Of a DNA stretch of 64,000 nucleotides, positions 1,799 through 64,000 are shown piece by piece. The notes below the pieces were generated by a model that was not told the origin of the DNA, ran no database searches, and worked only from the letters and a program-made list of their open reading frames with translations. A program made the translations under genes and the position numbers. The stretch comes from a virus. Lineage: Duplodnaviria; Caudoviricetes. Numbering within the stretch: position 1 is the stretch's first letter; every line of letters starts with the position of its first letter. The stretch spans positions 19,485-83,484 of the IMG/VR virus record IMGVR_UViG_3300031853_000015; one strand, given 5' to 3'.

Positions 1799-1808
1799 TA
1801 CCTTTGCA
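1799..1808 (+). promoter_or_regulatory. Bacteroidota -7 promoter for the virion RNAP operon
   Basis: TACCTTTGCA. The TTG used as start by the ORF track lies inside this element. Confidence 0.7.
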
Positions 1809-1842
1809 CAATCAAAATAATAATAGTAAAAAAACAAGAAAT

Positions 1843-4800: not shown

Positions 4801-7800
4801 GGAGTCAGTGTAGAAGAAAATAATAAGGAGCTTGCTGAAGTACTTCTTAAATTACATTCCTCTGATAGAGCTGCAGCTGAAAAAGCCATCGCTGAGGGTA
4901 TTTTAGAGCCTAAGAAAGGAATAGAAGAGGATGAAAGACAAAAGCGACTTAAAGAACTTTTAGGAAGTAATTATAATGTATATTTAAAGTTCATTACTAC
5001 TCCTAAATCTGAAGTAACACGTGGTTCAAGTGGTAGTTCTCAAACAGATGGTCAAGGTTTTAGGCATATAGATTCTTATAGAAAGATAGAAATAATGAGA
5101 GGTACTTGGAGTAGCAATCCTCTTAAGGAAGTATTGTATCAAGAGGTCTCAACTATTAATGAAGATTGTATAAAGAATCATCGCAATCCTACTCCTGAAG
5201 AACTTGATAGAATTCAAGCCTTCCATGTGACAATAATGCCTTTAAAGCCTTACCTATTTACTATGGAAAAAGTACATATAAATGATGGAAAGACTGATGA
5301 TAATCTGTTTGTTCCTGTACAACATAAATATGCAGAAGCTATATTAATTCCTTGCCTGCTTCCTGTTGGAAGTAAACTTAGAGAAGTAGCTGAGTATATG
5401 GGAGAGAATAATATTGATTTGATATGTTCTGATTCTGTAGTAAAGGTAGGTATGTGGGGACAAACTGATATTGAGGAAAAGAGTTCCACTGACATTTCTA
5501 GCTTTGTTAATGAGGCAAAGAAGAATATTAGTAAACTGCCTTCATCAGTTAAAACTGATAGCAGTCCTCTTAGAATAATGAGTATTGAAAAGGGTCTTGA
5601 TTTTAATATTTCTGTAGGAGAAACCTATAATGTCAAGTTAGATGATAAAAATGCTCAATATCATATTCTTGGGTATGAACAAGATGGAGATCAACATCTT
5701 TCTAAAATATGGTTTACATCTTCTGAAGCTCCCAATAAAGTATCTAGTTTAGTAGGAAGCACTCTTGCAGAATTTATTGATGCTGCAGGTAGTCATAATC
5801 CCATTAAAGCTAATACTAACAGTACTATAAATATTAAGGATAATCTATCAAAAGCTGTTATACATGAATTGAATTATGAAGATTATAGAATTCAATCTAA
5901 TGTTCCTGAACATATAAATGTAGAAAGGGCATTGGGTACTCAGATAAGGAAACTTATTATGGGTAATATTAATATGTTTTCTAAGGATGTTTATGGATAC
6001 TTAAAAGATAAAAATGGAGAAGATATATCTTTTAGACTTACTAAAGGAGGAAGTAAAATGAAACTTACTGGTAGAAATCTAGTTTCTTTATATACTTCTC
6101 TTATAGTAGCTAATATGATGCAATCTTTTGCTAAGTTTAAAAGAAATATTGAAAATGAAAAGAAATTAAGTACCCTTCTTACTTCTGCTATTGTTAATAA
6201 TGATAGGTACTCTTTACATCAATTGCTAGACATAGCAGTTAATGATGGCGAGTTTGCTACTCCTTTATATGAAGGTTCTATAGAGCATGATACTATAAGT
6301 ATGATAGCCAGTATCTTCAGAAAAGAAGTTAATAAGCAGGATATGAATGGAGGTAGTGCTGTACAAGTTTCTGATTGGGGAATTACTGCTAAAGAAGAAG
6401 TTACAGGTACTGAAAGACCTCTTAAATTTGTAACGGATGTAAATAATGAAAATGTATTATATGCAGAAATTGAAATTCCTTTTAACTTTACTTATATCAA
6501 TTCTGATGGTATAGAAGTGGCTTTGGACTTTAATACTTATTGTAACCCTGATGGAACTTTTAAATTAACAGGTAATACTATTGATATAAAAGGAGTCAAA
6601 GTAGCAGAAACTAAAATAGAGCATGATTTTCCTGGCATACTAGACATAATTGCATATAGAATTCCTTCAGAAAGATGTTACTCAATGCTTAATTGTAGAG
6701 TAGTCAGATGTTCCAATATGACAGCTGGAGGTACTATAAGAGTTCCAGCCCAAGGTACTACTATTGCAGGTTTTGACTTTGATATTGATAAGTTATACTT
6801 ATTAAGAAGAAGTTTTGTTAAACGAAGAGTAGCTGTAGAATCTGCATATTCAGGAGCCGAAAAGTATGATATTTTTGCTAAAATATATGCTATGGATGCT
6901 GAAAGACAAAGAGTTCTTGAAGCTAAAGATAAGTCTCAAAAAGCAAATATTATTAATGCTCAAGCAGAGAAGACTTTAAGAGAAATGAATCAAGATCCTG
7001 ATGATTATGCTTCAGTAGAATCTCTTTGGGAAGAACTTTTTATAAATCTAGAAAGTCCTTATACTACAGTATATGAAGAACTAAGTAATGAAGATAAAGA
7101 TTATTTAGAGAATAAGCTCATAATACCAGGAGAAAGATTAAAAAATGTAATTTTCTTAAGCAATCTCTTTAATGAGGAGAAAAGACGTAAAGTTTCAGAA
7201 ATCTCCGATGATAAAATTTACAAAGGATCTGAAGTTTTTCATATGTTATTTGATGAACTGAATAATGGTCAAATAAGTAAAAAAGGTTGGAAAATTTATA
7301 ATAAATTAGACTATTCTCAGGAATATTATGATGAGGAACAAGTAAGAGAAGATGAAGACTATATTCCTTCTTCTGCTATAATATCTAAGTTAAGAGCTAT
7401 AAGAGAAGCTTCAGGAGAATATCACTATGAAAAAACTGCCAAAGGAAAAGTAAAGAAGGTTTATGATAAGGCTTTAGCTGAATACTGGAATACTATGATT
7501 GAGCAGAATCCTTATATGGAAGGTGAAGATGCTTATGATAAAGGCAAACTCTTTGAACAAGCAGCAAAAGAACTTGGCTTATGGAAAGAGATTGAATATA
7601 AGGAAGAACTTGAAAATTATGATTTTGATAAAGGAGTAACACAGAATAGTAGGTCCTCTAGAAATAATCTTATCTTTGAGTTAATGAGACAGAGACTTAT
7701 GGACCCTGAGACTCTTAGAGATAGGTTAACTCCGGGTGGATTTGATAATTCTAGAAATGCTGCTGCATATTTGAAAAAGCTTCTACATATTAATGAAGAA

Positions 7801-10800
7801 CAAGATGCTGCAGATCCAAGTACTCTATTATTCTATAATCAGCTTAATCAAGTAGCTGCTAAATTAATTGGTGTATTTGCTAATCAAAGCACTAATCACC
7901 AATTATCATCTATAATAAGAAGTTTAGATTTGAGAGAACCTATTCTTTTCGATGGTATGATTGATGCTAAACTTATTAAAAGCACAGAAGCCTTGGAAGG
8001 ACTAGAAGATACTGAGAAAGAAGAAAAAATAGGGCGTAGTTTATTATCTAAAATTATACAGTTGAAGGATGGTACTATAGTAGATATAGATTTAAACCTT
8101 GCAGAATTCCTTGCTGCTTCTGTAGATGCTGTAAAGGATCCTGTATTGAATTATCTTAACTTTAATACCACTACTGCCTCAGTAGGAGCCTTACTTGCTA
8201 GAATGGGCTATGCTACCAAGGATATAGGACTTTTATTTAATCAGCCTATAATTAAAGAGGTATGTGATATTATTCAAAATAGTGGTAATACATTATCCTT
8301 TAATAGTGTAAAGAGTGATATTATTAAAAAATATGGTACTTATGATGAATATAAAAAGATTGCAACTGATGTAACATCTGAAACATTAGAAGACACTATA
8401 ACCAGATATATAGATGTTTCTGAAAAAGCTCCTAATGCTCAAGAGGCCTTTCAATCTCTAAAGCAAGAGAAAGATTATATGCAGACACAATTAGCTGCAT
8501 TGAAAATATTTGATCAGGCCTTCAAAGCTTCCAGAGAATTAAACAATTTTATAAATACCACTAAATTCACTGCGGCAAATGCTGTAGGCAGTACTTTAGG
8601 CTTCTTTTATAATCAGCAATATAAAGTAGAAGATTATGTTAATCAATCAGACAACATGTTAAAGATGGTTATTTATGAATCTCTTAAGAATGCTCAGGAA
8701 ATACAAGAGGGTTCTAAAGAAGTACAAGATAAGTCTCTTAACACTAAAATACCAAGCAGTCTGGTTAATGATAGAGAAGCTTATATAAAATCTCAAATAG
8801 AAAATCCTTTTGCTTTTGAGCAGTGTATGTATGATTTAAATAAGGAATTTCTTAAAATATTAAGTAAGTACTATCCTTATGATAAAGCTATTTATAAAAA
8901 TAGAAGAGAGGTATTAAGAGATTTTTTAGCTTATACTAGAGTATTGGATGCAGAAACTATAGATTATGCCCATAGAGAAACTATGCAGCATATATTAAGT
9001 TCCACTGATAGTGCCTTTAATCCTACAGCTATTTATGTCAATGAAGCAGGTGAAGAAATATTGATAGATACTGATAAAAAGGATCTTGATGGTAATCCTA
9101 TTAAGCGTCCCTTAACTAATAGAGAATATTATTTATATCAATTTCCTATTGAATTGTTTAATATGGAGGGAGTTCCCAGAATTGATGCTTTAAAAGAGAA
9201 ATATCTCAAATTTACCTATTCAACACATACAGACACAACTACTGGAAAAGTTAATGCACAATTAAATATATCTGTAGATTTAGCTGTAGAACAAACAGAT
9301 AAAAATACTTTTACTAATCTTTGGGCACAGTTAGCTTCTCAGCATTCAGACCCTCTTCATATAAACCAGATAAAAGTAGACTTTATAAAAAAGTATATAA
9401 AACTTCATTATCTTATTCCAATGGATATTACATTGAAGAATTTAGAGCGTGCTAAAGGAGAACGTTATGAAGCTTTAAATAAAAAATATGAAGACTATGA
9501 AGAAAAATTGAAAGATTTCTTAAAAGATATACTGTCCTCAGAACAGTTAGAAGAAACACTTACATTTGCTAATGCAGAAACCTTTATAAACGTTTATAAT
9601 GTAGATAGAATTAATCTTCCTGCTGAGGAACAAGAAGCATTAAATAAAGAAATCCAAAAGAAAATAAATATGGATAATATATGTAATAAAGTAGCTTTAG
9701 GACTATATTTTCATAATTATTATAGAACTGGTTTTGGTACAGGTCCTTTTAGCTTCACACAATTTACTCCTATTGAAGTGAAAAATCTTATTGAAATAGG
9801 AGAGGGGGCAGACAGAATGCCTTATCTAGATTATATAAGGCCTGATAATTTGGAAACCTTAGCTACTGCAGCAATTAAAGGCAGGTATCCTAGAAGTGCT
9901 GTTGAATTTGCTTATATGTATGCTTTAAATCATACAGATGATTACAAACTTGTCACACCTATGCCTTCTACAGGTAATCAAACATATGCCTCCTATTTTG
10001 TAGATGCTTATGGCTATGCTACTTCAAAGTTTTCTATTGATATACACACTGCTGAAAAAGATATTAAGGAGGCTGATAAGAAGTTTGTTATGGCTGTAGA
10101 TAAAGAAACAGGAGATTTTAAGGTACATCCTGTTATTAGAAGGGGTGGACAAATTTATGTAGCCACTATAGATGGAGAATATAATTTTACTGGTAATATA
10201 TTTGATTCCTCCAGGCACATAGTTACTTATATGAATGTACCTATCTTAGGAAAGAAAAATGTTTCTACTACATATGCCTCTACTTTAGATGAAGCTTTAG
10301 CAATAAAGAAGGGAGATGCAGAAGTGCTTACAGCAATTGAACAATCTATAAGTGATACAATTAAAGAAGATATTATAAGAAGACAACTGGAAGAAAAAGG
10401 AGAAGAAGTTGATGTTGATGATCTTCTACATCAAAGTGAAGAGGTACCCTCGGAAACTGTTGAGGAAAATCCAATAGGGGCTAACTTTGCAGAAGATGAT
10501 TCTTATACTGAAGAAGATGTAGATGCTCTTATGGAGAGAATATCTGAATGTAATCAAGTAAATGAAGATTTCTTATTGGAATATGTTTTAAAAACTTATG
10601 ATGAAACAGCTCCTGAAGATCAAGAGGTTGTAAGAGAAAAAGCTGTACCTGCTATTAAAGAAAAATTAAATAAAGCAGTAGAAGAAGGTCTTCCTGCATC
10701 TATGCAAAATACTAAGGTAGCAGAAGCTTATAAAAAGCAACTTCTAATTGAACAATTAGCAAACAGATTAAAAGCCGATGTAAAAGCAGGAAGAATTGAA

Positions 10801-10836
10801 GTTTATACAAAATTAACAAAAGAAAAAATATGCTAA
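1843..10836 (+). CDS. Single-chain virion-type two-barrel DNA-dependent RNA polymerase, about 2997 aa
   Basis: Catalytic GFDFDIDK (DxDxD) motif, AYRIPSE and QTDGQGF motifs typical of crAss/phi14:2-type RNAP. Likely start ATG 1843, stop TAA, no in-frame TAG. Confidence 0.9.
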   Translation: MNRAYCYSPQAIDKKLANYMSTRPYAIAWTPGFIATLRGAYDLANGFSEEQGKVNPMWSLDIDTEDYDGDSVQADNLYNIAQTLADFRFEKKKEQANAINNFNENRTEIWTTISDNYSDLNTFYQRASQLSFYFIQAVDNYIEQQRLEGKIFTRKQIIEGIPLEDEDGHYVMSNGKPMMAIDSDKIFSAVFNRFMEDYSERMDDPNTKEAAKKEYYHNEYQKIFNPKVWAALLMASKAQLKQMEGLKVSLTDNSASEVDLSTLNDNDLSDLFIAEESVREGWQVITDCLSAYGNLSKEVRKALSYIPLLDEKGQALEDDLGYDIRMSSITAYHDLMDLLRNCRSKSKMMKLIERSQGFRSLYDKLVNNEVLQSQLYNNFRKTSQLYVQIQWEWNKIKFYVLNKTKGEHSVGNYLFSIKYRPAGSSIAASSRTHWSQADLDSLSNLLKQFEDKYDSDGKLTYSFWKERATQQATLLRKVFNALGIAYTDKALSTLLDNKKNLSEVVKQLAGLSQHGGLKSERADTEGYNFYAWLTYKTKEQEKGDTQAKIEKIITKLEESGNGIVYENKCRTVNGKGQSVTYYGDVQPNFMGDLLGKIQSFAQAFPEEREESRKEFKEWLRNKYFSSSQFCTDFDAEGNPKSSSNVKNFLLRTLWEEANADVTNARIEATNKQRKLDNEAPLPYVTDMFDDNSLTSQFRFMRVVTGKYQQTVIPFENFTTKQHFEQLVGSYFALDTQSNQQMQEFVYVPVFVLGDSGVCKVLKIKRKSTFDDYQDDKFNGDSVVEELYNLYESELRRMTLFQKFIEQNNKKHIKNNPNILKTSKKFTMLTFLNEEFKGRDFKTLGKQEVKQAINKYLEKGFAAFLKVGENTGALKVDSSGKLGKNPMYQDICRIADPRKEAHSKTPALRERLKELYYNVYLSNLLQYQIFTGDLGYYESVKEFQKRYKEVHAPGEVLDVNATWKGKEVVKANAQGLKTQKTIYFEDIGVSVEENNKELAEVLLKLHSSDRAAAEKAIAEGILEPKKGIEEDERQKRLKELLGSNYNVYLKFITTPKSEVTRGSSGSSQTDGQGFRHIDSYRKIEIMRGTWSSNPLKEVLYQEVSTINEDCIKNHRNPTPEELDRIQAFHVTIMPLKPYLFTMEKVHINDGKTDDNLFVPVQHKYAEAILIPCLLPVGSKLREVAEYMGENNIDLICSDSVVKVGMWGQTDIEEKSSTDISSFVNEAKKNISKLPSSVKTDSSPLRIMSIEKGLDFNISVGETYNVKLDDKNAQYHILGYEQDGDQHLSKIWFTSSEAPNKVSSLVGSTLAEFIDAAGSHNPIKANTNSTINIKDNLSKAVIHELNYEDYRIQSNVPEHINVERALGTQIRKLIMGNINMFSKDVYGYLKDKNGEDISFRLTKGGSKMKLTGRNLVSLYTSLIVANMMQSFAKFKRNIENEKKLSTLLTSAIVNNDRYSLHQLLDIAVNDGEFATPLYEGSIEHDTISMIASIFRKEVNKQDMNGGSAVQVSDWGITAKEEVTGTERPLKFVTDVNNENVLYAEIEIPFNFTYINSDGIEVALDFNTYCNPDGTFKLTGNTIDIKGVKVAETKIEHDFPGILDIIAYRIPSERCYSMLNCRVVRCSNMTAGGTIRVPAQGTTIAGFDFDIDKLYLLRRSFVKRRVAVESAYSGAEKYDIFAKIYAMDAERQRVLEAKDKSQKANIINAQAEKTLREMNQDPDDYASVESLWEELFINLESPYTTVYEELSNEDKDYLENKLIIPGERLKNVIFLSNLFNEEKRRKVSEISDDKIYKGSEVFHMLFDELNNGQISKKGWKIYNKLDYSQEYYDEEQVREDEDYIPSSAIISKLRAIREASGEYHYEKTAKGKVKKVYDKALAEYWNTMIEQNPYMEGEDAYDKGKLFEQAAKELGLWKEIEYKEELENYDFDKGVTQNSRSSRNNLIFELMRQRLMDPETLRDRLTPGGFDNSRNAAAYLKKLLHINEEQDAADPSTLLFYNQLNQVAAKLIGVFANQSTNHQLSSIIRSLDLREPILFDGMIDAKLIKSTEALEGLEDTEKEEKIGRSLLSKIIQLKDGTIVDIDLNLAEFLAASVDAVKDPVLNYLNFNTTTASVGALLARMGYATKDIGLLFNQPIIKEVCDIIQNSGNTLSFNSVKSDIIKKYGTYDEYKKIATDVTSETLEDTITRYIDVSEKAPNAQEAFQSLKQEKDYMQTQLAALKIFDQAFKASRELNNFINTTKFTAANAVGSTLGFFYNQQYKVEDYVNQSDNMLKMVIYESLKNAQEIQEGSKEVQDKSLNTKIPSSLVNDREAYIKSQIENPFAFEQCMYDLNKEFLKILSKYYPYDKAIYKNRREVLRDFLAYTRVLDAETIDYAHRETMQHILSSTDSAFNPTAIYVNEAGEEILIDTDKKDLDGNPIKRPLTNREYYLYQFPIELFNMEGVPRIDALKEKYLKFTYSTHTDTTTGKVNAQLNISVDLAVEQTDKNTFTNLWAQLASQHSDPLHINQIKVDFIKKYIKLHYLIPMDITLKNLERAKGERYEALNKKYEDYEEKLKDFLKDILSSEQLEETLTFANAETFINVYNVDRINLPAEEQEALNKEIQKKINMDNICNKVALGLYFHNYYRTGFGTGPFSFTQFTPIEVKNLIEIGEGADRMPYLDYIRPDNLETLATAAIKGRYPRSAVEFAYMYALNHTDDYKLVTPMPSTGNQTYASYFVDAYGYATSKFSIDIHTAEKDIKEADKKFVMAVDKETGDFKVHPVIRRGGQIYVATIDGEYNFTGNIFDSSRHIVTYMNVPILGKKNVSTTYASTLDEALAIKKGDAEVLTAIEQSISDTIKEDIIRRQLEEKGEEVDVDDLLHQSEEVPSETVEENPIGANFAEDDSYTEEDVDALMERISECNQVNEDFLLEYVLKTYDETAPEDQEVVREKAVPAIKEKLNKAVEEGLPASMQNTKVAEAYKKQLLIEQLANRLKADVKAGRIEVYTKLTKEKIC

Positions 10837-10837
10837 T

Positions 10838-13800
10838 ATGAGTAAATGTGTATTTAATTTTGATGCTAAAAATGAATTTACTGGGGAAATAACTCAAAGT
10901 ATACTTTGGTAGAGTTTGAGAACCCACTTCAAAGATAATTATGTCATGGCAAAAGCTTATTATAAGATTGCCACAGATGAAGAATTTTTGAATTTAGCAA
11001 AAGACCGTCTTTCATTCAATGATCAAGGGGACCCCACCCTTGAATCATTGATGGAAGCACTGGGGGAAAACATAGATAAAGAAAACTTAAGAGGCATTAT
11101 TGAAAAAGGTTTAGGTGAAGGTAAGCCTATGGATTATAGTACTGCTATATACAAAATATAGGCATACAATAAAACATATCCTGATTCTAAATTTATAGCC
11201 TCTTTTGAAGAAAATAATGATGGTACTGTTACTATTAAAGCTCTAGACAATACTGCTAAAAACAAAGCTAAATTATTAAGCAAAATTAAAGATAGGGCTT
11301 TAATAGACAGAATGATGTATTATCTTAGAAATGCAGGAGTAGATGTTAAATTCTTAGAAGATGGAACATAGTCTGTTTATAGTACTGAAAATGCTGAAAA
11401 AAATGCTTAGGGGCTTTATGAACTTATCTAGCTATCTAATACCTCAAATAGAAGTATTCGTGAAGATTTAACTGAACATTGCGGAAATTTAATTATTGAC
11501 ATATTAGGAAAAAACCATCCTTTAGTTTCAAGATTAATGACTGCCTTATAGAATAAAGACTTCTATCAAACTATTATAGAAAATGAGGTTCCTAACTTTT
11601 TACAGCATAGATTTTCCAATGAAGGAGATGCCAGGGTTTTAGCAGGATGGTTAATAGGCAAATAGCTAGAAATGGGAGCAGACAGAGCTATGAAAGCTGA
11701 TAGTTTCTTAGGAAAAATTTTTAAAGTAGTAGGAAACCTCATTAATAGAATGGTAGATCTTGTTAAATATATTTTAAAAAAGATTCCAAGTAAAGAGTAT
11801 GCTGCATCTTTGAGACAAGTTAATGATATAGCCTTATAGATTGCTCAAGGATTTGCTTCCCCTAATTTTCAAGGAATATCTGAAGAAGAGATAGAAAATA
11901 TTAATACTAGTTTTATCAAAGATACTATTAATCCCTTAAAACTTTCTACTAATGTTAGGGTTACTAAAAAAGCTTTAGATGAGATTAACAGGTTTGTATA
12001 GAGAGTGAAACTTTATGATACTAATTTTTATAAAGGCCTGCAAAAAGACTTATCTAAAGTAGAAGGATTTATTGATTTTACTAAAGTACTCTCTGCAGAT
12101 AAAACTATTATGGATGAAGAAGCTATGGTAGCTTTAGTAAATGCTGTACAAATGCTAATCTCAAACCATAATACTATTGTAGAAAGATTAAATAAAATTG
12201 ATTTTACTGCAGAAGCTGATTTTACTAAGAATATGGGTAAATATGCTAACTATATAAGAAGTGCTTTGGCCTATGCTTATACTGCAGAGAATATTGTTAA
12301 ATTAATAAAGCAATATACAGTAAATGATAAAACTCTTCCTTCTGAAGTTGTATTAAATGATTTTACACAAATCAAAGTACCAGCTAAATATGGAGGAATG
12401 ACTTATGTAGACCTAACAGAAATTAATAAAAGATTAGACACTCTAGTTAACTCTGCAGGAGGTATGTTCCGAGTTGTAAAAGCAAAGTAGAAAGCTTATG
12501 TTTTGAGATTCCTTACTGAAGCTATAGGCAGTCCTCAAATAGAAGTAGCTAGTAGAGTAATAGGATTTAAAGGTGCTGTAGAGGATGAACATATTTTGAC
12601 CATAGAACAGATTATGGATGAGTTAGGCAATGATTTAAATTGGTGGGAAAGATATTTTTCTTCTATGTCTAACAATCCTGATATTTGGGGATAGGCCTTT
12701 GATAAAATAACTAAGATAGCCAAACTTAATGCTAATAGATAGTATTTAAAAGACCGTGATGAATTAATATTAATAGAGCAGTATGCTTAGGATAAACATG
12801 TAAAGTTTGAAAAACTCTTTGATAGAGATGATAAGAATATTCCTACAGGATATTTAATAGGATATATTGATTATAATGGAGACCGTTTAGGTGTAGACTG
12901 GGCCAAATGGCAAGAAGACTTTGATGAATTTACTAAAAGGAAAAAGGACGAATTTCAAAAAATATATCAAAAGGAATTAGCCAAAGCAAGAGAAGCTAAA
13001 AGAGCAGTACTATGGAATGCTTTTTTTAAGGAAGCGTATAAAGAATGGCATAAAGAGAATTCTGTAACAATTGTAGAAAGAAATACGGAAGGAAAGGTTA
13101 TTAGATATGTTAATATGCCTAATCCAAGTAAGGAAAAATATGGTTCTGATAAATATGATAAATTATCTAAAGATGAGAAAGATGTATTAGATGAGTATCT
13201 TAAATGGAAAATCAAATAGGATAAAAAGCTTCCTAAAGGATCTACTTTAACTTTTAGAGTCCCTTAGATTTTAGGTTCTACTGTAAATCAAATACGTAAT
13301 AGAAGACTTACAAAACAGAATCTTCCAAAGGCAATACTTACTACTTTGATGTAGAATATATGTGACACTGTTGTAAAAAATGCAAATGATATAGATTTTG
13401 GTAGTGATCTTACAGTAAATGCACCAGATGTATTAAATGATAGATTGGCATATGAAGATGATAAAGTCGAAAGGATTCCTTTGTTTTATATTAATAGATT
13501 ATCTGAAGAACATAGAATAAGACTATCTACAGATCTTATAGGAAGTAGTATGGCCTATTCTGCTATGACAAACCAATATAATTATCTACAAAAGATTAAA
13601 GATTCTTTGGAACTTAGTCATGACTAGATGAAGGATAGGATTGTTAAAGTAAGAGGAAAGGTAGGGCCTGATCAGGGGCAATCTAATGCATATAAGAGAG
13701 TTACTACCTTTATGGAGAAAGAATTATATGGCTTGTAGTTTGGTTATAAAATGTCTGGTATGCAAGCAGCTCTTGCAAAATTAGTATAGTTGTCTACAGC

Positions 13801-15514
13801 ATTGGCTTCAAGGATGTTTCTTGGAGGTAATATTCCAGGTGGTGTTGCCAATACAACAATGGGATTCACTGAAGTGCTAAAAGAAGCTGCTGTTGGAGAA
13901 TATTTTGATCTAAAAGATTGGGGAAGTGCCATAGCAGAATATTTTGGAACTGATAAAGATAATAACCCCGAATATAATTTCCTTACAGATAATTTGTTTG
14001 TAGATAGCTTCAGATAGATTAAACGAAATAAAGTAAATCAATTTTCAGAATATTTTGATGCCTTTGGAGATAATAACAGACAATTCCGATATAATAACTA
14101 TTTTGGGGAAAAGTATTTTAAATTTAAAGGAAAAGAATATTCTGTAGATTTAGAAAATCTTAAAATAGCTGATATATTTTATCATAATGCTTTTGCTCCT
14201 TATAGCATAGGAGACCATTTTATGCAGTTAATACCTTTCATAGCATTAGCAAAAAGTATCAAATTGCATTATCTTGAAGATGGAAAAGTGGTTACTAAAA
14301 GTATGTATGATTGTTACTAGATTCTTCATGAAGGGGACTTAAGAGAGGAGCATATAAGTTCCAGAGGTAGATTTGGACTACCTAAACGTAATTATGTAAA
14401 AGACAAGGCAAATGTATAGCTTGTAGAAGATTTAGATAAGAAAATATCTAATATGGATGCTCTCATTGCAGCTATAGAAAATCATATTTCAAGTTTAAAT
14501 AGGTTTGGTTTTAAATCTTTTGATACTACTCCTTTTCAAAGTATAATTGATGAATATCACATAGAAGTCAATGATGATGAGTCTAGTCCTGTAAATAAGG
14601 AAAGTATATAGAAGCTTAAAAATGAACAATCCAAGTTAAGACAGTAGTTGCATGATTTAACTTGGCAGTCTGAAGATGAAAATGCTTTTAAACTTAAGGC
14701 CAGAGAAATAGGAAACAGATTACATGGTATTTATAATACATAGGATAAAGTAGAATTTTAGTAGAATATTCTAGGCAATTCTATATTAGCCATGCGTGGT
14801 TATATGTTAGGAATGGTAGAAAGACGTTGGGGCAGTAGTAAATATAGCTTAGCCTTAGGTTAGGATGTTGAAGGAAGTGAAAGAACTTTTTGGAAAACTT
14901 GGTTTGCTTTTTTGGGAGGCAATATGACTTTTAAACACATGGTTGCTCTGTAGTTATATCTCCCTTTAGTTAGACCTCAATATGCTAAAAAATTAATGAA
15001 AGACTATGGTTTCAGTGATAATCAATTTTATAACATGAGAAGACATCTTATAGACTGGCTTGTTATATTAAGCACTAGTATATTAGTTGGAGGAGTGTTT
15101 AGACTATTTGATTATTAGGGCATATTAGGAAGGCCTTCAGATAGTGATCCTGATGATTATTATCCTAAAAATAAGGATGATTATGCAGCAGCTTTGGCCT
15201 ATTATTTTATATCTAGATTATATATGGAACAGGCTGCATATAATGAACTTACAGCTGCTGCATAGGTAGAAGGTCCTAGTGTTTTCTCTTTAATAGGTTC
15301 TAATGTAGCAATGCTAGATAATGCTCTTACTATACTTAATCTTGCTATAAATGGAGATGAGTATAAACAAGGACCTTTTGCAGGCCAAAGTAAAGCTAAG
15401 ATTAAATTTCTTAAGTATATGCCTATATTTCGCTGGTGGTATACTGTAGATCAAGATCCTAGAAAATCTGCAGAAGCTTTTGAAGTTAATAGAGGAGGAA
15501 TTAGTAGAAGATAA
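10838..15514 (+). CDS. Large virion (ejected/cargo) protein, about 1558 aa; TAG=Gln
   Basis: ATG 1 nt after the RNAP stop. Track fragments 10916, 12005, 12503, 13445, 13790 and 15311 share one frame and join through TAG; ends TAA. Confidence 0.8.
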
Positions 15515-52198: not shown

Positions 52199-52353
52199 TA
52201 CTGATAATATATTAAAACATAAGAACCACTATTTTCTTGTAATATAGATACAATATTATCTTTCATTACCCCCATGTTATTAGCAGCTTCTACTAAGTCT
52301 CTTACTGTAGAACTTTTTATAGCACAGAGTGTTTCTTTTACTTGTCTTTCCAT
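52198..52353 (-). CDS. Small hypothetical protein, 51 aa
   Basis: MERQVKETLCAIKSSTVRDLVEAANNMGV; stop overlaps the next start. Confidence 0.6.
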   Translation of the reverse strand: MERQVKETLCAIKSSTVRDLVEAANNMGVMKDNIVSILQENSGSYVLIYYQ

Positions 52354-52369
52354 ATAAAGTTAATTAAGT

Positions 52370-52438
52370 TGCGGGCCTAGGACTTGAACCCAGAGCTTAA
52401 GGCTATGATCCTCATATGTTACCTTTACACCAACCCAC
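52370..52438 (-). tRNA. tRNA with anticodon CAT (elongator Met or Ile2)
   Basis: Cloverleaf GTGGGTT...TGAGG-ATCATAG-CCTTA...TTCAAGT...GGCCCGC; G1-C72, so not initiator type. Confidence 0.75.
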
Positions 52439-52465
52439 ATATAACTTCTACTCTTTTTTAACCCA

Positions 52466-52678
52466 TTACTTCTTTTTTCCAGATATCTTACCTCCAGCAG
52501 CAAGCTGCATTGCTTGAACCCTCTTAGATAGTTCAGCAGCTCTAGTCTTAGCAACTTTAACAGCAGCTGCTTTTCTATTCTTATCTGAAATTATCTCCTA
52601 ATAGCGTGCCAATGTTTCAGCATCACTTTCAGCTTGCCATTTCTTTTCATTTGCAGTCATATCTTGTAATCCTTTCAT
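52466..52678 (-). CDS. Small basic helical protein, 70 aa, 1 TAG
   Basis: MKGLQDMTANEKKWQAESDAETLARY*EIISDK. Confidence 0.65.
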
Positions 52679-52683
52679 TTTAA

Positions 52684-53142
52684 TTAATTGATAGTTAATT
52701 GTATTGGAATAGTACTACTTTGAAGTATTTTGTATAACTTTATAAAAGTCTCTTTAGAATTAAGAACTTTACCCACTGCCTTGTTTTCTCCTACTATAAT
52801 ACAACCTGCACTATCTTCAGCTGTATTACCTGCATGTATTAATACTCCTTCAAATCCAGGTACATTCAATAGCCTTGGAAGTCTACCTCCATTAGCATTC
52901 TTCATATAGAAGTCTTTTGTACCAAATCTAGGACTTATAGTATTTAATACTATTGTGTAAGTACCTGTAGGTATAGCAGTTTCATTCTAAACTTTCATAC
53001 TTTTTATTACAGATAGAGGCATAGTCTATTTTAATCCTCTATCTTTATCTTCTATAGTATTACAAAAGAAGGCATCATCTATAAACAATTTACCTATAGT
53101 ATAAGTGTCCTTCTTAGCAATTCGCTTTAATAGCAATTTCAT
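52684..53142 (-). CDS. DUF5675-family protein (L,D-transpeptidase-like), putative endolysin, 152 aa
   Basis: MKLLLKRIAKKDTYTIGKLFID...ETAIPTGTY...GVLIHAGNTAEDSAGCIIVG. Confidence 0.8.
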
Positions 53143-53153
53143 ATTTTAAAAGT

Positions 53154-53315
53154 TTATTTCTTTTTGTGCTTAAAGTGTTTTGCGTTCTATGCAAATATAG
53201 CCCTTTTCCTTGTTATAGGATTCTTACTATGAGTAAGTTCTTCAGTACTCTTACCTGTTCTTTTCTTAGTAGCAGTAAATTTGCCTCTGTTTTCTTTCTT
53301 AATATGTATTGCCAT
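53154..53315 (-). CDS. Small basic protein, 53 aa
   Basis: MAIHIKKENRGKFTATKKRTGKSTEELTHSKNPITRKRAIFA*NAKHFKH. Confidence 0.7.
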
Positions 53316-53392
53316 AATATTATAGTGCTATTAAATATGTATTGTTTTAATCTACATCTCCATATGGAGGTGACTTATACATTAAATTTAAG

Positions 53393-53464
53393 TAGTCCCT
53401 AGCAGAATTGAACTGCTCTTTAGAGATTGAAAATCTCTTGTCCTAACCAATAGACGAAAGGACC
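53393..53464 (-). tRNA. tRNA-Glu(TTC)
   Basis: AGAGA-TTTTCAA-TCTCT anticodon arm; T arm AGCAG-TTCAATT-CTGCT. Confidence 0.9.
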
Positions 53465-53467
53465 ATG

Positions 53468-53540
53468 AGCAGATGATGGGATTCAAACCCACAACTTTCA
53501 GAATGGAAATCTGACGCTCTGTCAATTGAGTTACATCTGC
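53468..53540 (-). tRNA. tRNA-Gly(TCC)
   Basis: GCAGATG/CATCTGC acceptor; TCAGA-TTTCCAT-TCTGA anticodon arm. Confidence 0.85.
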
Positions 53541-53703
53541 ATATGCTGTAGTTTATCCATCATCCTACAGCTAATGTGGATAGTACGACATCCAACAGGA
53601 CTAATCTTATGTTGTATTTCTAAACTATCAAAACTTAAAATATCAGAAACAACAGCCTGTAAGTTACGTTGAGTTTTACACTAGTACTATACTCTTTATT
53701 GTG

Positions 53704-53776
53704 AGCCTCCTATAGGACTTGAACCCATAACACACTGATTACAATTCAGTAGTTCTACCAATTGAACTAAAGAGGC
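53704..53776 (-). tRNA. tRNA-Thr(TGT)
   Basis: GCCTCTT/AGGAGGC acceptor; ACTGA-ATTGTAA-TCAGT anticodon arm. Confidence 0.9.
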
Positions 53777-53992
53777 AAAAGAAGGAGGATAAAAACAAAC
53801 TATTCTCAGAAAAAAAGATCCTCCCTCCCATCATTAATAACCACCATCGTAGTTATCATTATTACTATTATAAACACCAATCATATATCCTATAACAAAT
53901 GTTATTAGGAGATATATAAAAACAATCAAGTCTCTCATTAAAATGTTACAGATATTTTATTAACAGCATCCATAAAATTTAATGAATCCTAC

Positions 53993-54385
53993 TCATTCTG
54001 AAGTTGCTTTACTTGCAGTTCTTCTACTACGCTTTTTAACTCCATTAGAACAGTCTTCATCCTTTCCTTTAGTCTCTGTTCCATTGTCTTCTCCATTAGA
54101 CTTATTAACTGTTTTAGTTGTTTTCCTCTTAGGTTTTTCTGTTTCTAATTCCTCTTTCTTAACTTCCTGTACTATTTCCTCTGGTTCTACAGGAACTAAC
54201 ATTAATATTATAAGAGAAATTACTGCCAGTAAAATTGGAAGAATAACTATTATCCAAGGTAATGTGCTATAACTTACCATTTTAAGTAGTATACAAACTA
54301 CTCCTGCTATGAATAATACTGCCACTCCTTTATTAACAACTTCAGTGGAATTAACTAAACTTTCTAATTTTTCTACTAACTTCAT
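53993..54385 (-). CDS. Two-TM membrane protein with a charged tail, inside the tRNA cluster; TAG-free
   Basis: Two hydrophobic segments followed by a Lys/Glu-rich C-terminus; stop TGA. Confidence 0.7.
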   Translation of the reverse strand: MKLVEKLESLVNSTEVVNKGVAVLFIAGVVCILLKMVSYSTLPWIIVILPILLAVISLIILMLVPVEPEEIVQEVKKEELETEKPKRKTTKTVNKSNGEDNGTETKGKDEDCSNGVKKRSRRTASKATSE

Positions 54386-54410
54386 ATTTTATTTTATGTT
54401 AAAATAAATG

Positions 54411-54482
54411 TACCCCCACTAGGATTCGAACCCAGACAAGAAGGCCTAGAATCTTCCGTGCTAGCCATTACACCATAGGGGA
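54411..54482 (-). tRNA. Amber suppressor tRNA (anticodon CTA), Gln-type body
   Basis: TCCCCTA TG GTGT AATGGCTA GCAC G GAAGA-TTCTAGG-CCTTC ... CTGGG-TTCGAAT-CCTAG TGGGGGT A. Weak 1-72 pair and G37, as in the neighbouring tRNA-Gln. Confidence 0.9.
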
Positions 54483-54511
54483 TTATATACCCAGTATTTC
54501 AAAGAACTTTT

Positions 54512-54585
54512 TGGTTGCTCCTGAGAGATTCGAACTCCCCAATTCAGAACCAAAATCTGATGTATTGCCACTATACTAAGGAGCA
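54512..54585 (-). tRNA. tRNA-Gln(TTG) with encoded CCA
   Basis: TCAGA-TTTTGGT-TCTGA anticodon arm; ends AGGAGCAACCA. Confidence 0.92.
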
Positions 54586-54589
54586 ATAG

Positions 54590-54661
54590 CTGCCTAGAAG
54601 AATTATGATATCTTGACCTGCTGATTAACAGTCAGCTGCTCTTCCTCTGAGCTACTAGGCA
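54590..54661 (-). tRNA. tRNA-Asn(GTT) with a degenerate T loop
   Basis: GCTGA-CTGTTAA-TCAGC anticodon arm; T arm reads AAGATATCATAATTCTT, without TTC. Confidence 0.65.
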
Positions 54662-54668
54662 ATTTTTG

Positions 54669-54740
54669 TAGGGGATGGGAGAATCGAACTCCCTTCACTT
54701 GCTCCCAAAGCAAGAATCTTATCCATTAGACCAATCCCCT
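54669..54740 (-). tRNA. tRNA-Pro(TGG)
   Basis: CTTGC-TTTGGGA-GCAAG anticodon arm; GGGAG-TTCGATT-CTCCC T arm. Confidence 0.9.
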
Positions 54741-54918
54741 AAATAGCATCTCTATAATCACTTACCGAGATGCTCAGAACCTTAAGGTTCATCCTCAATG
54801 ACCGTCACTCTATTAAGAAAGAGCCTCTCATCGCCCAAAATTTCTTGAGACTCTTAACAGTCATCGGGATTCATTTAATTCGAATCTCCATTATGAAAAC
54901 AAAACATTCATTTCATGG

Positions 54919-54952
54919 TGCAAATATAAATAAAATATTTGACATGACCAAA
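54919..54952 (-). promoter_or_regulatory. Bacteroidota -33/-7 promoter for the tRNA cluster
   Basis: TTTG (54949-54952), 20 nt, then TATATTTGCA (54919-54928). Confidence 0.75.
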
Positions 54953-54962
54953 TTTATTAACA

Positions 54963-55481
54963 TTATTTAACGAAATTTTTTATTTTTCTAATAAAATCCT
55001 TTAATTTTGCAGGGTCTAACACCTCTTTATTAGTGATTCTCTCTATTCTTATATTAGGATTACATCTCATTATATCCTCAGTTCTCCATTCATCAAGATA
55101 CTATTGGTCAAGAGTTTGATGATATTCACCATCTACTTCTATAACAAGATTAAGTGTTGGAAGGAAGAAATCTACTATATAGAATCTTTCAACCTTTCTA
55201 TCCTCTCCTACTATATATAAAGGATACTGGAAGATAAAGTTTATATGTTCCTTATAAAGAAGTTCATATAATCTCTACTCTGCTTTAGTAGGATTCATTG
55301 CTAATTTTCTTGCATATTCTTGAGCAGCAACTACTACATTCTTTCCTACAGGTTTTTCAGTACCTTTAATTCTTGCTCTTACTTTCTTCCTGGAAGAAGT
55401 GGCACAAGTTTCAGATTTACTCTTCTTCTTGAAACCACTTCTTTTCCAAGTATAAGTTTTCTTTGTTTTAGACTGTATCAT
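54963..55481 (-). CDS. DUF559/Vsr-like endonuclease, 172 aa, 2 TAG
   Basis: PTKAE*RLYELL...FQYP...FYIVDFFLPTLNLVIEVDGEYH...DEWRT. Confidence 0.8.
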
Positions 55482-61625: not shown

Positions 61626-61776
61626 ATCAAGGAGTACTGATTCCAAATACTACTTACAAATGCTACTAGGAACTAGTACTCCCTACTATACCAATGGTAT
61701 AGCAAGTGAGAGACAGAAACTCACTATAATAAAACGGAGGGAAGGAAAACCCTAAAGTAAACCACCTCATTTAAAG

Positions 61777-61849: not shown

Positions 61850-61857
61850 AAGATTCT

Positions 61858-62157
61858 ATGAAGTATCAGCAGACATGGAAAGATTGTTTCATTCATCATC
61901 AGACACAGAAGGACGTTATTCTCCAGAGAATACGTGAAGCCAAACTGAAAGCTGCTAAGTATTCTATGAAGAGATGGAATGAGCTTTACGAGATTAACAA
62001 AAAGCTCTCTGATGAATTCTGGGCATTGTCAGATAAATACCACTCTACAGGGGATTCTGACAAAACATTGGTTTGGAGTATGCGTAGTCTCCATACCAAG
62101 ATGTCTAAGAATAATGAAGAAATGGATCTTATCTGGAAGTTTAACCATAAAAGCTAG
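61858..62157 (+). CDS. Early hypothetical protein, 99 aa, ends at TAG
   Basis: Complete ORF in the standard code; readthrough would add 18 aa up to TAA 62209-62211. Confidence 0.65.
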   Translation: MKYQQTWKDCFIHHQTQKDVILQRIREAKLKAAKYSMKRWNELYEINKKLSDEFWALSDKYHSTGDSDKTLVWSMRSLHTKMSKNNEEMDLIWKFNHKS

Positions 62158-62166
62158 ACTTCCTTA

Positions 62167-62268
62167 ACAGGTCATGGCCCTGTAGAACAGACTTTACATC
62201 TGTTCTACTAAGCCCATTAAGCCATGAGCGTCCCCACACTATGCGCTTGAATAGTGTGGGGGGTTGGG
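62167..62268 (+). ncRNA. Pistol self-cleaving ribozyme
   Basis: P1 ACAGG/CCTGT; pseudoknot TCATGG/CCATGA; P2 CCCA/TGGG; TTAAG; GCGT; 11-bp P3; GGT cleavage junction (predicted 62263/62264). Same element order as env25 pistol. Confidence 0.8.
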
Positions 62269-62340
62269 AATAAAGGGTTAATCCAAAAGCCCATCACATA
62301 AGTGATAAAAAGGATATAACTTTATAAATTCTAAATACAT

Positions 62341-62568
62341 ATGATGTATAAGGAATTTAAAGTAGAAGTCTCAAAGACTCTCGCTGCTAAAGTATGCATA
62401 TCCAAAGAGGATTTGCATGCTCTGGGTGTTAGTACCTCAGAGGTAGCAGAAGAGTTCTTGAAGTCTAACCCTGAATATAAAAGCTGCACTTCTGATGCAG
62501 ACTTTAATAATGGGGTTTGGACTATCTCTTTCTATACTACTTCTGAAGTAGTATTTAAGGAGGTGTAA
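62341..62568 (+). CDS. Early hypothetical protein, 75 aa
   Basis: Complete ORF after an AT-rich leader; TAA stop. Confidence 0.7.
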   Translation: MMYKEFKVEVSKTLAAKVCISKEDLHALGVSTSEVAEEFLKSNPEYKSCTSDADFNNGVWTISFYTTSEVVFKEV

Positions 62569-62621
62569 GACTCTCTGCAAGTTGGGTTTAGGCACACCCA
62601 ATATATAGACAAAAGGCATCT

Positions 62622-62659
62622 TGACTTAATGGGAGATTCAAATAGAAATCTCCCATAGT
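62622..62659 (+). promoter_or_regulatory. Repeated leader hairpin, copy 1 (TGACTTAA-stem-TTCAAATAGAAA-stem-AGT)
   Basis: ATGGGAGA/TCTCCCAT stem; 12-nt loop identical to copy 2. Confidence 0.6.
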
Positions 62660-62683
62660 AATTAACCTTTAAATTCAGATGAT

Positions 62684-62875
62684 ATGAATATATTAGCTGG
62701 ATTCGCACTATGCAGTTTCTTTACTGTGTGTGTAGTGTTCATGCTGGATGCAGCAGTGGATACTACGTACCGCAGTAAATATGCGAAGATTGCTATGTAT
62801 ACTTATGTAAGCATAGCAACTCTTCTTGTAGGAGCTGCATGGTTGTTACTTATATACTCAGCTGTATGTAAGTAA
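62684..62875 (+). CDS. Early two-TM membrane protein, 63 aa
   Basis: Two hydrophobic helices; TAA stop. Confidence 0.7.
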   Translation: MNILAGFALCSFFTVCVVFMLDAAVDTTYRSKYAKIAMYTYVSIATLLVGAAWLLLIYSAVCK

Positions 62876-62929
62876 TAACAATTGGTTGCCAATGGGCATT
62901 AAATGACAGGTAGGGCTGTCAGCCAAACT

Positions 62930-62982
62930 TTCCTCCATTACAATGGGTATTAAGGAGGGTTCAAATCCCTCTGGAGGAACTA
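62930..62982 (+). ncRNA. Minimal tRNA-like element (acceptor + T arm), copy 1
   Basis: TTCCTCCA/TGGAGGAA stem; GAGGG-TTCAAAT-CCCTC T arm; 17-nt linker. Confidence 0.55.
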
Positions 62983-63111
62983 TGTCATGTAGGCTGTCAT
63001 TAGTATGCCTAAGAGTATTGCAGGCTCTGCTTGGCAACTGTTAAAGTACCAAGTTAATAAGACTAATGTGACGAGGGAAAGACCTAATTGCCACTTTAAT
63101 AATCCAAGGGC

Positions 63112-63402
63112 ATGGAAAGTAATATGAATACCTTCTTTAATAATCTTGTTGCTGCTGGTGCTAAGTATCACAACTGTGCCAATGGCGTAGCTGTAGAATT
63201 ATGTGGGCACTTCTGGGTGTTCACTGACACCAAAGAGCCAATCTCCTTGTGGGGAGATGGTAATGGTAGTTATGTCTCTGTACCTCTCAGTACAAAGAGA
63301 CCAGTTGTTTTGGTCGAGAGAGAAAGTATAGCCTGGGGAAAATACTGGGAATTAAGATATAGTATTCCCTTGGATGGAAGTAAATATAGGGTATTTTGTT
63401 AA
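63112..63402 (+). CDS. Early hypothetical protein, about 93-96 aa
   Basis: Complete ORF with TAA stop; start may be ATG 63112 or 63124. Confidence 0.7.
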   Translation: MESNMNTFFNNLVAAGAKYHNCANGVAVELCGHFWVFTDTKEPISLWGDGNGSYVSVPLSTKRPVVLVERESIAWGKYWELRYSIPLDGSKYRVFC

Positions 63403-63434
63403 TATTACAGTCCTACCAAATGACTATAAAATGG

Positions 63435-63470
63435 TGACTTAAAGAAGGTTCAAATAGAAACCTTCAAAGT
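63435..63470 (+). promoter_or_regulatory. Repeated leader hairpin, copy 2
   Basis: TGACTTAA-A-GAAGG-TTCAAATAGAAA-CCTTC-AAAGT. Confidence 0.6.
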
Positions 63471-63491
63471 ATAATAAATATAATATATGAT

Positions 63492-63818
63492 ATGAGAAAT
63501 CAATATTGTATTTATTGTGACTCTATCCATGATGAGAAATCTGAGATGCTCACAAATGGCATTTACAGATGTATTCATCTGGATACCTTCCTTAGAGATT
63601 ATAAGGAAGAGTTTGACATTAATAATGATCTTATCATTATTAATGATCCTGACTCTGCTATTAAAATGGCAGATTCTGCTAAGATTCTTCCTTTCTACCT
63701 TAAAGAAGCAATTCTTCATACTTTGGAAGTTGCTTCTAGGTATGCTCTCAGGAAGGACTGGCCAGATGCGTGGTTAAGGGCTGAAGAAGCAAAGCTCTTA
63801 ATCTACAATAGTCTGTAG
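63492..63818 (+). CDS. Early hypothetical protein, 108 aa, ends at TAG
   Basis: N-terminal YCIYCDSIHD (CxxC); TAG stop; readthrough would add 6 aa up to TGA. Confidence 0.7.
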   Translation: MRNQYCIYCDSIHDEKSEMLTNGIYRCIHLDTFLRDYKEEFDINNDLIIINDPDSAIKMADSAKILPFYLKEAILHTLEVASRYALRKDWPDAWLRAEEAKLLIYNSL

Positions 63819-63868
63819 TCTGTAGAGTCACATTGAGTTTCAAATCTCAATATAGACAAAATTGGGCA

Positions 63869-63956
63869 TCCTCCAACTACACAATAAAAGTGTAGGAAAT
63901 GGCTATACTCTCATACTACTGAGAGTTAGGTAGTTCAATTCTATCTGGAGGAACTA
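63869..63956 (+). ncRNA. tRNA-like element, copy 2
   Basis: TCCTCCA/TGGAGGA acceptor; GGTAG-TTCAATT-CTATC T arm; two internal hairpins; same 3' TGGAGGAACTA as copy 1. Confidence 0.55.
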
Positions 63957-64000
63957 AGCAGATGCCTAACTGCTATAACAAAATAGGAAGGGTAAAACCT

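Follow-up and report, generated by a model that had tools for sequence, protein, structure and literature searches.

The window of 64,000 nt analysed here is the final part of an IMG/VR virus record of 83.5 kb (81% complete by estimate; G+C content, 32%). On its plus strand, a short gene ends in TAG and a pistol ribozyme begins 9 nt further on. The features of the locus, together with the phage tRNA that bears on the TAG, are as follows.

61858-62157, plus strand: ORF99, 99 codons plus TAG; the first plus-strand (early-type) gene past the divergent gap, with no internal TAG
62155-62157, plus strand: TAG of ORF99; a stop in the standard code, Gln once the phage suppressor tRNA acts
62158-62166, plus strand: spacer of 9 nt from the stop to P1, ACUUCCUUA; its sequence is conserved in ORF99 homologues
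62158-62211, plus strand: readthrough extension of 17 sense codons (TSLTGHGPVEQTLHLFY), then TAA at 62209-62211
62167-62268, plus strand: pistol ribozyme with inserted hairpin, matching Rfam RF02679; predicted cut G62263/U62264
62167-62171 with 62179-62183, plus strand: P1, ACAGG with CCUGU, 5 bp by manual reading
62172-62177 with 62222-62227, plus strand: pseudoknot, UCAUGG with CCAUGA; extendable to UCAUGG(C) with (G)CCAUGA (62221-62227), hence 6-7 bp
62182-62208, plus strand: inserted hairpin in the P1-P2 linker, 27 nt, with a 10-bp stem and the loop CUUUACA
62213-62216 with 62265-62268, plus strand: P2, CCCA with UGGG
62231-62242 with 62251-62262, plus strand: P3
62341-62568, plus strand: next early ORF, 75 codons with a TAA stop, 72 nt past the ribozyme
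54410-54482, minus strand: tRNA with anticodon CUA (amber suppressor), in the late-strand tRNA cluster; found by ARAGORN, Rfam tRNA score 45 bits

The first-pass annotation had placed the TAG 9 nt before P1 and had followed a readthrough frame through P1, the 5' pseudoknot strand and the hairpin to a TAA. All of its coordinates were correct. The TAG and the spacing are read directly from the sequence, the codon listing agrees with the frame, and the Rfam Pistol alignment gives the predicted junction at 62263/62264. From the TAG, the frame crosses P1, the loop that holds the 5' pseudoknot strand (UCAUGGC, 62172-62178) and the inserted hairpin, and its TAA ends one base short of P2. By chance, 61-63% of TAGs in this genome should have a TAA or TGA in frame among the next 18 codons. 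The TAG-P1-TAA layout is real but, taken alone, not improbable.

We found homologues of ORF99 at 73-89% identity, and all of them stop at the same position (...NHK followed by S, G or D). Comparison of the window with the homologue on L003 gave 38 third-position versus 5 second-position differences, and the reading frame survived codon indels among the homologues. With third positions taking up most of the differences and the frame intact, ORF99 is a real gene. No Pfam or PHROG family was found for ORF99, for the downstream ORFs or for ORF108, the first early gene of the relative G001 described below. The last ~85 nt of the ORF99 leader were conserved in the homologue contigs, and within this leader, at window positions 61701-61767, the DUF805 RNA motif was matched weakly (20.8 bits, E = 0.68).

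A crAss-like phage with TAG recoded to Gln

The genes for the major head protein, the portal and the large terminase are open only when TAG is read as sense, and their PHROG matches identify the phage as crAss-like. In the minus-strand block 15578-61199 (late genes), reading TAG as sense gave long ORFs with up to 62 in-frame TAGs. In addition, the TAG codon in the window capsid gene aligned opposite Gln in the major capsid protein of G001, and vice versa. The phage, a gut phage, is crAss-like and TAG=Gln recoded, and it has its own tRNA-CUA. An eighth tRNA was detected by Rfam at 54590-54661 on the minus strand (51.7 bits) and was absent from the ARAGORN list.

The plus-strand ORFs had a different composition. 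From 61858 to the contig end, and also at the record start, internal TAG was almost absent. These ORFs look like a standard-code early module whose transcription points away from the late genes, and ORF99 is presumably expressed early. As a stop codon, TAG ended 3/19 of the early plus-strand ORFs of the window genome. A plus-strand scan of 61850-64000 found no terminator-like sites, and early ORFs without such a separating site fit a single long transcript. A half-tRNA-like element (acceptor stem and T arm) occupied an early intergenic gap at 62931-62980, where Rfam gave a partial tRNA match of 21.8 bits on the plus strand and a Plastid-ycf2 match of 33.8 bits on the minus strand. Elsewhere on the plus strand (1804-15514), a 3010-codon ORF with zero TAG has a neighbour 2 nt downstream on the same strand, an ORF of 1558 codons that contains 31 in-frame TAGs.

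Borges et al. (bioRxiv 10.1101/2021.08.26.457843) describe stop-codon recoding as a regulator of late genes, in which the recoded codon is also a legitimate early-type stop. The window phage resembles their Crassvirales phages of code 15, with TAG-free early or lysogeny genes, TAG-rich late genes and a phage tRNA-CUA. The effects of late readthrough on RNA structures behind early genes, which concern us herein, were not considered there.

A search of a GenBank phage collection for similar DNA gave no match. A protein-seeded locus search of viral contigs with ORF99 and its 1294-aa neighbour gave no match either. The bovine-gut metatranscriptome X2 contained 57% of the words sampled and was not counted as evidence.

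The pistol ribozyme and its inserted hairpin

The window element scored 31.7 bits (E = 0.0014 on 1.5 kb) against Rfam RF02679, below the curated cut-off of 34.5. The inserted 27-nt hairpin accounts for this low score. Homologous copies without the insert scored 50.4, 48.5, 46.5, 37.3, 35.7 and 35.3 bits (overall range, 34.5-50.4). In the Rfam alignment, CCCAUUAAGCCAUGAGCGU and GGU-UGGG of the window agree with all upper-case consensus positions, and the core columns and those of the two-nucleotide junction G62263-U62264 were invariant in 24 relatives. The element shares with the pistol class (RF02679; Weinberg et al. 2015; Harris et al. 2015, PMC4604425) the stems P1, P2 and P3, a pseudoknot joining the loop of P1 to the junction of P2 and P3, the conserved core AUUAAG...GAGCGU, a cut site at a G-U junction of two nucleotides, and an association with phages. 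It is unlike the class in three respects. First, a 27-nt hairpin with a conserved loop lies between P1 and P2. Second, the linker is short (UAAG). Finally, the 5' strand of P1 comes from whichever gene end lies upstream.

Covariation was measured in a model-based alignment of the copies. Paired cells amounted to 97%, and 15/25 pairs had changes on both sides. None of 500 shuffles was as good, and sliding the partners lowered the pairing to 31-48%. P3 had both-side changes in 8/11 pairs and four fully complementary versions in a script parse, and P2 was invariant. For P1, both-side changes in 3/4 pairs were counted, partly from hairpin rows that had been aligned to P1. The pseudoknot had compensatory changes in 4/6 pairs and was 95.9% paired; because the model used for aligning did not include it, this evidence does not depend on the alignment. 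Three fully complementary pseudoknot versions were found: UCAUGG/CCAUGA in the window, UGCCAG/CUGGCA in clade 2 of the ORF99 homologues, and CUCGG/CCGAG in L027. The insert-bearing copies were misaligned by MAFFT, and our custom model put the 5' part on the hairpin. Given this unreliability of the alignment, P1 and pseudoknot pairing of these copies was parsed by script. P1 was 2-6 bp long across copies in the parse, with 5 bp in the window. On sequence and pairing, then, the window element is a genuine member of the pistol family, and its cleavage is predicted. One pistol copy was seen in the 81%-complete record.

The inserted hairpin had a folding energy of -13 kcal/mol (z = -4.25), and it competes with P1, the two outer pairs of each helix being involved. 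Given this competition and a score that falls short of the cut-off (31.7 versus 34.5 bits), the window pistol could be an inactive relic, disabled by the insertion and leaving nothing to gate. We consider this very unlikely. Every conserved core position fits the model, P1 has 5 bp and the pseudoknot 6-7 bp. Furthermore, the hairpin-bearing form was present in at least 7 gene contexts and carried compensatory changes. The hairpin lay within the P1-P2 linker in the window, L005, L030, L033, L035, L036 and L040, and 8-14 nt upstream of P1 instead in L029 and L041 (L029:625-653 and L041:706-734, compared with L030:7079-7107). In L030 an inner A-U pair of the stem was changed to G-C, and in L029 the outer stem was wholly exchanged. 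The hairpin motif was found next to pistols only, with no second copy in the window. As an observation in its own right, the CUUUACA-loop hairpin behaves as a separate module travelling with pistols.

Stop codon and spacing in homologous and unrelated carriers

In the contigs of ORF99 homologues, the same ORF end was followed by the same ribozyme element. The codon at the equivalent stop varied by clade. It was TAG in clade 1 (the window, L002 and L046-L052; all 7 contig types), TGA in clade 2 (L003/4, L053 and L054) and TAA in clade 3 (L005). The spacer was 9-11 nt in ORF99 homologues under all three stop codons. The clade-1 sequences differed by ~7% of nucleotides, and TAG to TAA was the sole neutral stop change available to them; at such a divergence, and with one neutral change possible, the TAG of clade 1 is explicable by descent without selection. 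The contigs that carry TGA and TAA are at most 5.6 kb long, too short for reading the genetic code, so these carriers do not strictly contradict the view that TAG occurs here only in recoded phages. The natural TAG, TGA and TAA variants of one cassette could serve directly as experimental controls.

The readthrough extension was not conserved as a coding sequence among the homologues. In the clade-1 copies that lack the insert, a different extension of 11 residues closes at the UAA contained in the invariant AUUAAG core. L005 does carry the hairpin, but there the frame is shifted by an indel of 2 nt, which leaves the equivalent TAA out of frame. The comparison thus spoke mostly against reading this layout as a switch: the stop differs by clade (TAG, TGA or TAA), the TAA shifts its position, and the TAA has the chance expectation noted above (0.61-0.63).

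A pattern scan recovered 22 further metagenome loci with this pistol subfamily. Their upstream genes differed, and the shared sequence began only at GGUCAUGG. Among carriers (window 62167-62272 compared with L002-L054), homology was confined to the ribozyme, which fills the intergenic gap. The carriers were shuffled, with at least 10 kinds of upstream genes and ~6 kinds of downstream leaders, and the downstream ORFs began 13-72 nt past the ribozyme. The 5' break in homology falls within P1, so the 5' strand of P1 is supplied by the end of the upstream gene, and the length of P1 varies from 2 to 6 bp. From these breakpoints, the ribozyme looks like a module at which recombination takes place, or one that itself moves.

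In the subfamily, the upstream gene mostly ended in a TAA lying against P1 or overlapping it, and A residues of P1 often came from this stop; TAG and TGA were rarer. The other members had stops that overlapped P1 or lay 17-45 nt away, and none had the 9-11 nt spacing. Where the TAA overlaps P1, each terminating ribosome would melt P1, so ribosome entry into P1 is evidently tolerated. On the 64.8-kb contig L031, two pistol copies lie 419 nt apart (5472-5546 and 5891-5965), and both follow the same repeated gene end ...CGUGUAA, whose TAA overlaps P1.

The recurrent spacing raised the possibility of a coupling to translation that is independent of the genetic code. A spacer of 9-11 nt would put the ribozyme just outside the terminating ribosome, and translation of the ORF would tune the folding. 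It could, for instance, remove competing pairings that the spacer and stop region form with the pseudoknot strand or with P2 on its 3' side. The same range under all three stop codons, and the 9 nt in G001, are consistent with this idea. The minimum-free-energy fold is also consistent with it, pairing the stop region GCUAGACUU with AGGUCAUGGC and thereby hiding the pseudoknot strand. We nevertheless regard this coupling as unlikely: the other members of the subfamily place their stops over P1 or 17-45 nt off, the alternative pairing was weaker in L005 (by eye) and showed no covariation, and conservation of the spacer may reflect close kinship alone.

We searched 50 large records, related by capsid protein, for pistols, and G001 was the single carrier. 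G001 is a complete genome of 125 kb with 81% capsid identity. Its capsid gene contains three internal TAGs and a late ORF of 907 codons contains 33. From the in-frame capsid TAGs and the Gln alignment, G001 is TAG=Gln recoded too. The window tRNA-CUA DNA had no match in G001, which is uninformative either way. The G001 pistol, at 54.9 bits, is of another subfamily, and its P1 is ACUCG/CGAGU and its pseudoknot ACUAGG/CCUAGU; a scan for relatives of this type returned the same strain only. It follows the first early ORF, ORF108 (108 codons), whose similarity to ORF99 is not detectable. The TAG of ORF108 is exactly 9 nt before P1, with a spacer sequence different from that of the window. The G001 readthrough frame runs for 52 codons, across the whole ribozyme and beyond the cut site. 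Therefore, the part that recurs between the window and G001 is the TAG with 9 nt; a TAA before P2 does not recur. Hammerhead ribozymes of type III and type II, the two families looked for in the 51 related records, were not detected.

We compared the upstream stop with the genetic code of the carriers. Both recoded carriers (the window and G001) had TAG with 9 nt. L042 and L031, which look standard-code, had TAA upstream of the pistol. These two had been candidates for recoded carriers and were rejected: their long minus-strand ORFs containing TAG were antisense artefacts, as standard-code plus-strand ORFs cover the same DNA. PHROG searches on the code of L042 and L031 gave no deciding match.

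In G001, 7/19 of the early plus-strand ORFs end in TAG (C1:39111-47817, equivalent to L136:11111-19817), and the TAG share of early-ORF stops is 16-37% across the window and G001. With 3/19 and 7/19 early ORFs ending in TAG, a TAG stop before a pistol is not distinctive. The G001 proportion also means that late readthrough would extend many early proteins together. Several of the TAG-ended early ORFs of G001 have further in-frame TAGs just behind.

Termination, readthrough and ribozyme cleavage

We think it probable that the TAG of ORF99 is an ordinary early-gene stop beside a transcript-processing pistol, and that late readthrough is a by-product. Early in infection, ORF99 would be read under the standard code and its TAG would be a true stop. 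The pistol most likely cuts an early multi-gene transcript between ORF99 and the next gene, with which ORF99 is presumably co-transcribed, and self-cleavage in vivo would be expected. The ORF99 mRNA would keep a structured 3' end with a 2',3'-cyclic phosphate, and the downstream RNA would carry a 5'-OH. Once tRNA-CUA is active, some ribosomes would insert Gln at the TAG, extend the product by 17 residues and terminate at the TAA at 62209-62211. Such readthrough would be a tolerated side effect of the code switch, not a built-in control of the ribozyme, and probably has no regulatory effect.

Ribozymes that flank single genes are known from the operons of phages and prophages (Perreault et al. 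2011, PMC3088659; Weinberg, Weinberg & Hammann 2019, PMC6765202). Like these, the window pistol fills the gap directly after a stop codon, among small phage genes. Their proposed role is to cut a long transcript into gene-length mRNAs, and by analogy the same may apply here. The window differs from them in that the ribozyme is a single copy in the record and the phage is recoded, so that the meaning of the upstream stop changes during infection.

The first-pass annotation had proposed a code-gated switch, which we restrict here to recoded lineages. Termination at TAG would spare the pistol early, and readthrough by tRNA-CUA would delay or block cleavage of new early transcripts. In the G001 version, readthrough would run across the whole ribozyme, and the processing or stability of the early transcript would be altered. 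The physical premises of this proposal stood: the pistol is real, the TAG is recoded, the layout is as described and the suppressor tRNA is present. P1 and the pseudoknot are both required for pistol activity (Harris 2015, PMC4604425). Readthrough would force the ribosome to open these two elements, P1 and the strand of the pseudoknot, and in this sense the physical premise of a switch is sound. The geometry is suitable as well. As is known from toeprinting, the ribosome covers about nine nt beyond a stop codon held in the A site, so P1 at +10 would be just clear of a terminating ribosome. A spacing of 9 nt thus fits a ribozyme that is spared by termination and melted by readthrough.

The regulatory part of the proposal was not supported by the comparison. 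TAG was present in all 7 clade-1 contig types, and TAG with 9 nt and P1 appeared again in the independently recoded G001, behind another ORF and in front of another pistol; it is mainly owing to G001 that a code-gated effect in recoded lineages keeps its weight. Against this, sister clades of the same cassette use TGA or TAA, TAG stops are frequent in early genes, the end point of readthrough is not conserved, and n = 2 cases only. The kinetics also weigh against it. Pistol cleavage proceeds at ~10 per minute under physiological conditions (PMC4604425). Given cleavage this fast and irreversible, transcripts made early should have been cut well ahead of suppressor accumulation. Translation of 18 codons takes about a second. 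With a cut that is irreversible and made within seconds, against ribosome passage of ~1 s, only dense translation of newly made transcripts late in infection could matter. If transcripts are cut early, and later cleavage is blocked only under dense translation, a sharp switch is unlikely and a modest delay is possible. Overall, we judge a code-gated effect in recoded lineages improbable. The broader proposition is slightly more doubtful still: in recoded crAss-like phages, the TAG of the first early gene would precede a pistol by exactly the leading edge of a ribosome (9 nt), and the code in force would set ribozyme activity.

In leader-peptide attenuation (trp, ermC), whether a ribosome stops or continues decides the downstream RNA structure. 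There, tRNA charging or a drug gives the signal, and the outcome is a terminator or an exposed ribosome binding site; here, by analogy alone, a code change would give the signal and ribozyme folding would be the outcome.

The first-pass annotation also held that no link between recoding and ribozymes had been described. In recoded gut phages, theta (HDV-like) ribozymes adjoin suppressor tRNAs, with a proposed role in suppressor-tRNA processing (Kienbeck et al. 2024, PMC10879173). Since theta ribozymes flank suppressor tRNAs, the link between recoding and ribozymes is itself not unprecedented. The narrower claim held: our literature search found no paper on readthrough linked to ribozyme control. 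The theta ribozymes already connect small self-cleaving RNAs of gut phages to the TAG code switch. In their proposed role they would act upstream of the switch, whereas the window ribozyme would be its target, and unlike them the window element has a pistol fold, is located in an mRNA and lies 7.7 kb from the tRNA-CUA. HDV-like families were searched for around the tRNA cluster (52200-55000), and none was found at E <= 1.

Pistol ribozymes are so far without a demonstrated role in biology (PMC6765202). If readthrough did control cleavage, this would be the first concrete function for a pistol ribozyme. It would join two unsolved problems, namely the role of pistols and the shut-off or re-tuning of early genes in recoded phages, and it would provide a simple reporter for when the code switches. 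If, as is best supported, the TAG is an ordinary early stop and late readthrough a by-product, the locus matters less: it would be a clean pistol, supported by comparison, in a crAss-like phage and beside an early gene whose stop changes meaning.
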